Source: Escherichia coli
GTDB lineage: Bacteria; Pseudomonadota; Gammaproteobacteria; Enterobacterales; Enterobacteriaceae
Assembly: GCF_024298765.1 (NCBI RefSeq)
Contig: NZ_CP101210.1
Reading direction: 5' to 3' (one strand)
DNA: 64,000 nucleotides
Of the stretch, positions 10,141 to 10,257 are shown piece by piece. Both the position numbers and the translations under genes were made by a program. Below the pieces are notes generated by a model. It saw only the letters and a list, made by a program, of their open reading frames with translations. It ran no database searches and was not told where the DNA came from. Position 1 is the stretch's first letter. Each line of letters starts with the position of its first letter.

Positions 10141-10185
10141 ATGAATGCTGCTATTTTCCGCTTCTTTTTTTACTTTAGCACCTGA
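10141..10185 (+). CDS. pheM: pheST attenuator leader peptide PheM (14 aa, 5 Phe codons)
   Basis: ATGAATGCTGCTATTTTCCGCTTCTTTTTTTACTTTAGCACCTGA = [14 protein letters not shown]; Phe-rich leader upstream of pheS. Confidence 0.85.
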
Positions 10186-10234
10186 CTCCAGGAGGCTAGC
10201 GCGTGAGAAGAGAAACGGAAAACAGCGCCTGAAA

Positions 10235-10257
10235 GCCTCCCAGTGGAGGCTTTTTTT
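10235..10257 (+). terminator. pheST attenuator terminator
   Basis: GCCTCC-cagt-GGAGGC stem followed by TTTTTTT, located between pheM and pheS. Confidence 0.7.

Follow-up and report, generated by a model that had tools for sequence, protein, structure and literature searches.

Genomic Context of the Leader Region

The window, i.e., the whole stretch of 64,000 nt of E. coli DNA that was analyzed, contains open reading frames for L20, PheS, PheT, and IHF-alpha. All four matched the respective NCBIfam equivalogs with scores far above the cut-offs. PheS reached 401.6 bits with TIGR00468 and PheT reached 1007.5 bits with TIGR00472, so that the placement of the element upstream of pheST in an earlier, preliminary description of this DNA was borne out. 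The three genes downstream of the element are the following:

10469-11452, + strand: pheS (TIGR00468; RefSeq)
11467-13854, + strand: pheT (TIGR00472; RefSeq)
13859-14158, + strand: ihfA (TIGR00987; RefSeq)

The intergenic region between rplT and pheS harbors a short leader gene, pheM, on the same strand as its two neighbors, and both the synteny and the encoded peptide are those of a pheM ortholog. A query of 551 nt around the element was 100% identical to many complete E. coli genomes, among them those of the strains ATCC 11775 and Nissle 1917. On this identical DNA the RefSeq annotation comprises rplT, a "Phe leader region", pheM (pheST operon leader peptide), and pheS, and the gene order in ATCC 11775 is thrS-infC-rpmI-rplT-pheM-pheS-pheT-ihfA-btuC.

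The Rfam model RF01859 (Phe_leader) matched positions 10135-10259 on the + strand with 74.4 bits and an E-value of 9e-11, the gathering score of the model being 55 bits. The match was not truncated, as it covered model positions 1-125 of 125, and it included the outer helix and the terminator hairpin, while the internal hairpins aligned poorly (posterior probability 2-5). The consensus of the model translates to MKNILFFFAFFFT, which we take to be nearer to PheL, the leader peptide of pheA, than to PheM. RF01859 therefore appears to span both phenylalanine leaders, and the PGAP label "Phe leader region" seems to cover both of them as well. A reverse-strand Rfam match of 25 bits, which was below the threshold, and a minus-strand ORF at 10081-10389 were rejected, because both are by-products of the palindromic structure.

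The pheM Leader ORF and Its Upstream Signals

The pheM ORF and the signals that precede it were localized as follows:

10029-10053, + strand: hairpin AGAGGGAG / CTCCCTCT with a T-rich tail, just past the rplT stop codon; stem 70-100% conserved in 109 species
10074-10102, + strand: candidate pheM promoter, recognized by eye, with a -35 element TTGACT (10074-10079), a 17-nt spacer, and a -10 element TTCAAT (10097-10102)
10126-10130, + strand: Shine-Dalgarno-like motif AAGGT with a putative role in initiation at the leader ATG, which lies 11 nt further 3'; 70-100% conserved in 109 aligned upstream regions
10141-10185, + strand: pheM leader ORF with Phe codons at 10156-10158, 10162-10170, and 10174-10176; annotated as pheM (WP_001386830.1) on identical DNA

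The ORF begins with the ATG at 10141, ends with the TGA at 10183-10185, and reads ATG AAT GCT GCT ATT TTC CGC TTC TTT TTT TAC TTT AGC ACC TGA. It thus comprises 14 codons, five of which (codons 6, 8, 9, 10, and 12) specify Phe, exactly as had been claimed in the preliminary description. It has the features of a leader ORF, i.e., it is short, translatable, and enriched in Phe, it starts with ATG, and it is preceded by the Shine-Dalgarno-like AAGGT. The 64,000-nt window contains 785 ORFs of 8-30 codons that start with ATG. At least five Phe codons were found in five of them, and three of these five are nested starts of one ORF at 1501-1531. The pheM ORF is the only one of the 785 that has five Phe codons within 14 codons.

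The hairpin at 10029-10053 is probably the terminator of rplT and the upstream boundary of the pheM unit, as judged from its sequence and location; the terminator scan made no call for it. The position of the pheM promoter was likewise read from the sequence and is a candidate. The conservation of TTGAC is at least 70%, and that of the -10 region is partial (50-70%). The consensus promoter scan made no call at 10074-10102.

Mutually Exclusive Helices in the Leader RNA

Folding of the leader RNA revealed the following structural elements, which are numbered in the classical way:

10150-10173, + strand: segment 1, the 5' strand of the 1:2 helix, overlapping Phe codons 6-10 and the first base of the Tyr codon 11
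10175-10199, + strand: inner hairpin of the MFE structure, spanning the stop codon; 85.6% paired across species
10191-10240, + strand: antiterminator (2:3), formed by GGAGGCU (10191-10197) with AGCCUCC (10234-10240) and by 10198-10204 with 10225-10230
10203-10226, + strand: segment 2, the 3' strand of the 1:2 helix, from the MFE structure and the pairing in the alignment
10231-10257, + strand: intrinsic terminator (3:4) with a 10-bp stem (10231-10240/10245-10254), the loop CAGU, and a T7 tract (10251-10257); it aligns to Rfam model positions 96-125

The minimum free energy (MFE) of the 128-nt leader was -53.7 kcal/mol, compared to -32.5 ± 3.6 kcal/mol for shuffled sequences (z = -5.9), and none of the 200 shuffles was as good. 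In the MFE fold, 10150-10173 pairs with 10203-10226 in a 1:2 helix of 22 bp. This helix covers 14 of the 15 nucleotides of the Phe codons, which is the arrangement of an anti-antiterminator.

The terminator was called independently by the terminator scan. It is located downstream of the leader ORF and ahead of the first structural gene, as is typical of an attenuator, and it is 93.7% paired across species. Inside its stem, GCCTCC (10235-10240) pairs with GGAGGC (10245-10250), and its 3' side merges into the T7 tract, as the stem extends to 10254 and the tract covers 10251-10257. The GC-rich hairpin with a T7 tract that had been noticed at 10235-10257 was therefore confirmed, and its stem was extended to 10 bp.

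The antiterminator shares 10231-10240 with the terminator. The inner hairpin and the 1:2 helix, on the one hand, and the terminator, on the other hand, cannot coexist with it. Because the 1:2 helix, the antiterminator, and the terminator share bases pairwise, they are mutually exclusive in the classical 1:2, 2:3, 3:4 sense. The preliminary description had proposed that the RNA be folded and had regarded a lack of mutually exclusive structures as an argument against its claim; three such helices were found in the leader RNA, and they overlap one another.

The effect of a stalled ribosome was analyzed with folds of the nascent RNA, which extended from the 3' edge of the ribosome to position 10244. 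With the Phe codons masked and the transcript ending at 10244, i.e., without the 3' arm of the terminator, the antiterminator had a free energy of -17.2 kcal/mol. In RNA of this length it was formed regardless of which of the tested Phe codons held the ribosome. A different picture emerged when the full-length transcript was folded at equilibrium and the ribosome mask was moved from codon to codon. With the A site on codons 9-11, all 10 terminator pairs of the MFE structure were lost and the antiterminator took their place, whereas the terminator stayed in the equilibrium MFE structure when the stall was at codons 6-8. As only codons 9-11 flip the MFE structure, the equilibrium calculation was rejected as a complete model. 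The folds of the truncated transcript were used instead, because attenuation is a kinetic process. The behavior of codons 6-8 also means that the model depends on the order of co-transcriptional folding.

Conservation of the Leader in Enterobacterales

A single DNA-pattern scan of species-representative genomes, which was anchored in pheS codons outside of the element, yielded 120 Enterobacterales loci. The comparative set consisted of the 108 non-redundant loci that had enough upstream sequence. In all of them (108/108), pheS was preceded by a short ORF with F-R-F-F-F-Y-F-S as its core, downstream of which the same hairpin and T tract were present. The loci span Yersinia, Serratia, Photorhabdus, Xenorhabdus, Proteus, Morganella, Edwardsiella, Dickeya, Pectobacterium, Pantoea, Erwinia, Salmonella, Citrobacter, Arsenophonus, and Zophobihabitans. 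This conservation of the ORF, the hairpin, and the T tract is the decisive evidence that the element is real. It also adds a comparative aspect to the characterization of the element, namely that in the 108 Enterobacterales species sampled hardly any change is seen in the leader or in any of the three helices.

Two variants of the leader peptide were observed. In Photorhabdus asymbiotica a 6-nt duplication leads to FRFFFYFYFSA. In Morganella psychrotolerans an extra T in the T run causes a frameshift and an early end, MNTLVSFRFFFLL, and four Phe are kept.

Pairing statistics were calculated on a MAFFT alignment, which is blind to structure. The terminated fold was 91.8% paired, compared to 43-65% when the partners were slid by 1-3 columns. 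Eight of its pairs had changes on both sides, a value that was reached by 22 of 500 shuffles, and the number of cells with double changes was 47, which was reached by none of the 500 shuffles. Double changes occurred, for example, at columns 29/101 (C-G/U-A) and 38/92 (U-A/U-G/C-G). The 1:2 helix is composed of two alignment helices, which were 93.0% and 94.8% paired in the 108 species, and seven of its pairs were changed on both sides; the pair 29/101 was unpaired in 50 of the 108 sequences.

The core of the antiterminator was 95.6% paired and its lower helix 90.5%, and folding of the individual species sequences showed that it was formed in 104 of 109 orthologs. Covariation gave no support for the antiterminator, because its columns are nearly invariant, and shuffles reached the observed values. 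Its pairing potential was also not exceptional when the purine-rich upstream segment was shuffled: at least six arm bases were paired in 187 of 500 cases, and the fold energy was as good or better in 134 of 500. An outer extension of the antiterminator (10186-10190 with 10244-10248) was only 63% paired across species and is probably outside of the conserved structure. RNAalifold, applied to the MAFFT alignment, returned a weak consensus of nine pairs with -4.45 kcal/mol. The pairs that were chosen are those of the antiterminator core, and the weakness of the consensus is presumably due to competing structures that cancel each other.

Identity of the Element and Proposed Mechanism

The element is almost certainly pheM, the leader that attenuates transcription of the pheST-ihfA operon in E. 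coli. Directly observed were the ORF, the three helices that exclude one another, their conservation, the synteny, and the identity with annotated pheM. This attenuator is already known; it was described in the 1980s, it is curated in Rfam, and it is annotated automatically by PGAP. The original descriptions are reportedly those of Fayat et al. 1983 and of Springer et al. 1983 and 1985 in J Mol Biol. The preliminary description had called the element a classic ribosome-stalling attenuator, and this is supported by the Rfam match, the RefSeq annotation, and the alternative helices. The element can thus be regarded as a positive control, in which reading the raw sequence without any tools recovered a real regulatory element with the exact coordinates and the right mechanism.

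The comparison with K-12 pheM (b1715) revealed an identical peptide at the same place between rplT and pheS, and also the gap of 283 nt between the stop codon of pheM and the start of pheS is the same. The DNA identity was 98.3% over 462 nt. In the leader a single base differs, which is the first base past the stop codon (position 10186, C here and A in K-12). The element is a strain variant of K-12 pheM, and nothing of substance is different.

The proposed mechanism is the following. Transcription would start at the promoter just 3' of rplT, and a ribosome would begin to translate the 14-codon leader. With an ample supply of Phe-tRNA(Phe), this ribosome would pass the five Phe codons and reach the stop codon at 10183-10185. 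There it would cover GGAGGCU (10191-10197), or, after its release, the 1:2 helix and the inner hairpin would lock this motif. The 5' arm of the terminator would then be free to pair with the 3' arm (10231-10254), and the U7 tract would cause release of the polymerase before pheS, at about 10257. If Phe-tRNA(Phe) runs low, stalling would occur on codons 6-12, and the footprint of the ribosome would make segment 1 and the inner hairpin's 5' strand inaccessible. Bases 10191-10204, i.e., GGAGGCU and the bases that follow it, could then pair with the emerging bases 10225-10240. This would sequester the 5' arm of the terminator and result in read-through into pheS, pheT, and ihfA. Of these steps, the start at the promoter, the temporal order of folding, and the response of living cells to tRNA-Phe charging are our inference or were taken from published work.

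The architecture is shared with trpL, hisL, and pheL. All of them have a short leader ORF with a run of cognate codons and the 1:2, 2:3, and 3:4 helices, with the terminator as 3:4. In contrast to these three, pheM regulates genes for an aminoacyl-tRNA synthetase and IHF alpha and not a biosynthetic pathway. A further difference is the extra inner hairpin at 10175-10199, which is nested in the 1:2 helix and sequesters the 5' strand of the antiterminator; GGAGGCU (10191-10197) would be held in it as long as no ribosome is stalled.

In the literature, pheM is presented as being controlled by attenuation (PMC5371410, PMC3831192), with alternative stem-loops that overlap the Phe-rich peptide (PMC5371410, mBio 2017). 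The latter study mapped cleavage by RNase III within the termination structure by 5'-RACE ends and reported an RNase III-dependent RNA-seq signal for pheM at K-12 position 1799278 (PMC5371410). This position corresponds to position 10133 of the window, which is 8 nt 5' of the leader ATG. As the 5'-RACE cleavage ends are inside the termination structure (PMC5371410), the long 1:2 duplex is a natural substrate of RNase III. In another study, a reporter based on the pheM attenuator was employed in vivo (PMC3831192, Sci Rep 2013). The primary work cited by PMC5371410/PMC3831192 includes Trudel et al. 1984, Biochim Biophys Acta 782:10, and Mayaux et al. 1985, J Mol Biol 184:31.

Alternative Explanations

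Three other explanations for the leader were considered. The one that fares best, which is nevertheless very improbable, is that the PheM peptide has a function of its own beyond codon counting, either in trans or as a nascent arrest peptide. The extreme conservation of the peptide, which includes the non-Phe residues R7, Y11, and S13, would be in line with such a function. However, the nucleotides that encode it also have to maintain the 1:2 helix, with 93-95% pairing, and this constraint explains the conservation of the non-Phe residues, so that a peptide function is not required. Residues 2-5, which are mostly outside of the helix, vary freely (MNAAI, MSLAF, MHVVT, and others), whereas the part of the peptide that is encoded within the helix does not. 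In addition, the publications consulted gave no evidence for a trans function of PheM.

Even less probable, to the point of being negligible, is an ordinary terminator of the rpmI-rplT transcript, made up of the hairpin and the T tract, together with a Phe-rich ORF that arose by chance. The element is indeed only 123 nt downstream of rplT, T-rich DNA readily gives TTY codons, and four other short ORFs at two loci of the window also contain at least five Phe codons. Yet a separate conserved hairpin with a T-rich tail is present directly after rplT, at 10029-10053. The binomial expectation for an ORF with five Phe among 14 codons is about 0.12 per window. All 108 loci, which range from Yersinia to Zophobihabitans, retain the start, the frame, the stop, and the FRFFFYFS core of the leader, and the Phe codons are situated precisely in the partner strand of segment 2.

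Direct sensing of uncharged tRNA-Phe or of a protein by the leader RNA (a T-box or a protein-binding leader), without stalling of a ribosome, would fit the high degree of structure and the control of pheST by T-box leaders in Firmicutes, but its likelihood is similarly negligible, as no T-box or other riboswitch model matched in 9950-10500 at E-values up to 1 with permissive filters, the regulatory codons are within a conserved translatable ORF with a conserved Shine-Dalgarno-like motif, and the four-segment architecture matches that of the attenuators of trp, his, and phe. The explanation by ribosome stalling at the Phe codons of pheM is thus retained.

A Polymorphic Repeat between the Attenuator and pheS

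The read-through leader contains a further element, which is not a part of the attenuator proper:

10277-10424, no strand assigned: imperfect palindromic repeat of 148 nt between the attenuator and pheS

The repeat has terminal inverted repeats of 17 nt (10282-10298 and 10406-10422) and an MFE of -66.2 kcal/mol. The repeat family is of low copy number, as its members were detected by blastn with a median of five copies per E. coli genome. Among the loci compared, the repeat was present between pheM and pheS in Escherichia only. No RefSeq annotation of the repeat was found in K-12 or in the other genomes checked, and a literature search revealed nothing relevant. Its center has 18 of 21 bases in common with a consensus of the ERIC/IRU core, which makes ERIC/IRU a candidate family.

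The rplT-pheS locus was covered in full by about 88% of the complete E. coli genomes (4780/5426). In E. coli SCPM-O-B-8794 the repeat is absent, which is evident from a clean gap of 145 nt. The repeat is thus polymorphic in E. coli, being present in most strains but not in all of them. It could add a second, strain-specific control of pheST-ihfA, as a duplex that is targeted by RNase, as a roadblock, or as a structure that influences the translation of pheS, but we regard such a role as rather unlikely. If it did exist, strains with and without the repeat would differ in the expression of the synthetase.

The distance from the leader ATG to the start of pheS ranges from 157 to 481 nt across Enterobacterales, with a median of 204 nt. 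Long spacers were found in Yersinia (352-481 nt), Hafnia, Serratia, Photorhabdus, and Citrobacter. Their sequences are unrelated to the insert of E. coli, which suggests that independent insertions have occurred repeatedly in the spacer between the attenuator and pheS. In the E. coli strain GPEC60-33-648 (from chicken; NZ_CM142764.1) the match to positions 9950-10500 of the window was split into two pieces over about 1.26 kb, and an IS200C transposase gene was annotated under it, and thus an IS200 has landed in the intergenic region of rplT and pheS. The spacer is a hotspot of insertion, which within E. coli has received the 148-nt repeat and, in one strain, an IS200.

Further Rfam Matches in the Window

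The Rfam search of the window also yielded matches that are unrelated to pheM. The model HPnc0260, an antisense RNA of Helicobacter, matched with 112 bits at 57645-57807 (+ strand) and 57772-57926 (- strand), antisense to two adjacent tRNA genes. This is most likely a sequence antisense to tRNA and not a true homologue. Three enterobacterial sRNAs, STnc540, RprA, and RydB, were detected at the Rfam gathering score. Their positions in the window, listed together, are 14100-14258 (+ strand), 38934-39041 (- strand), and 44646-44706 (+ strand), and STnc540 is located directly 3' of ihfA.
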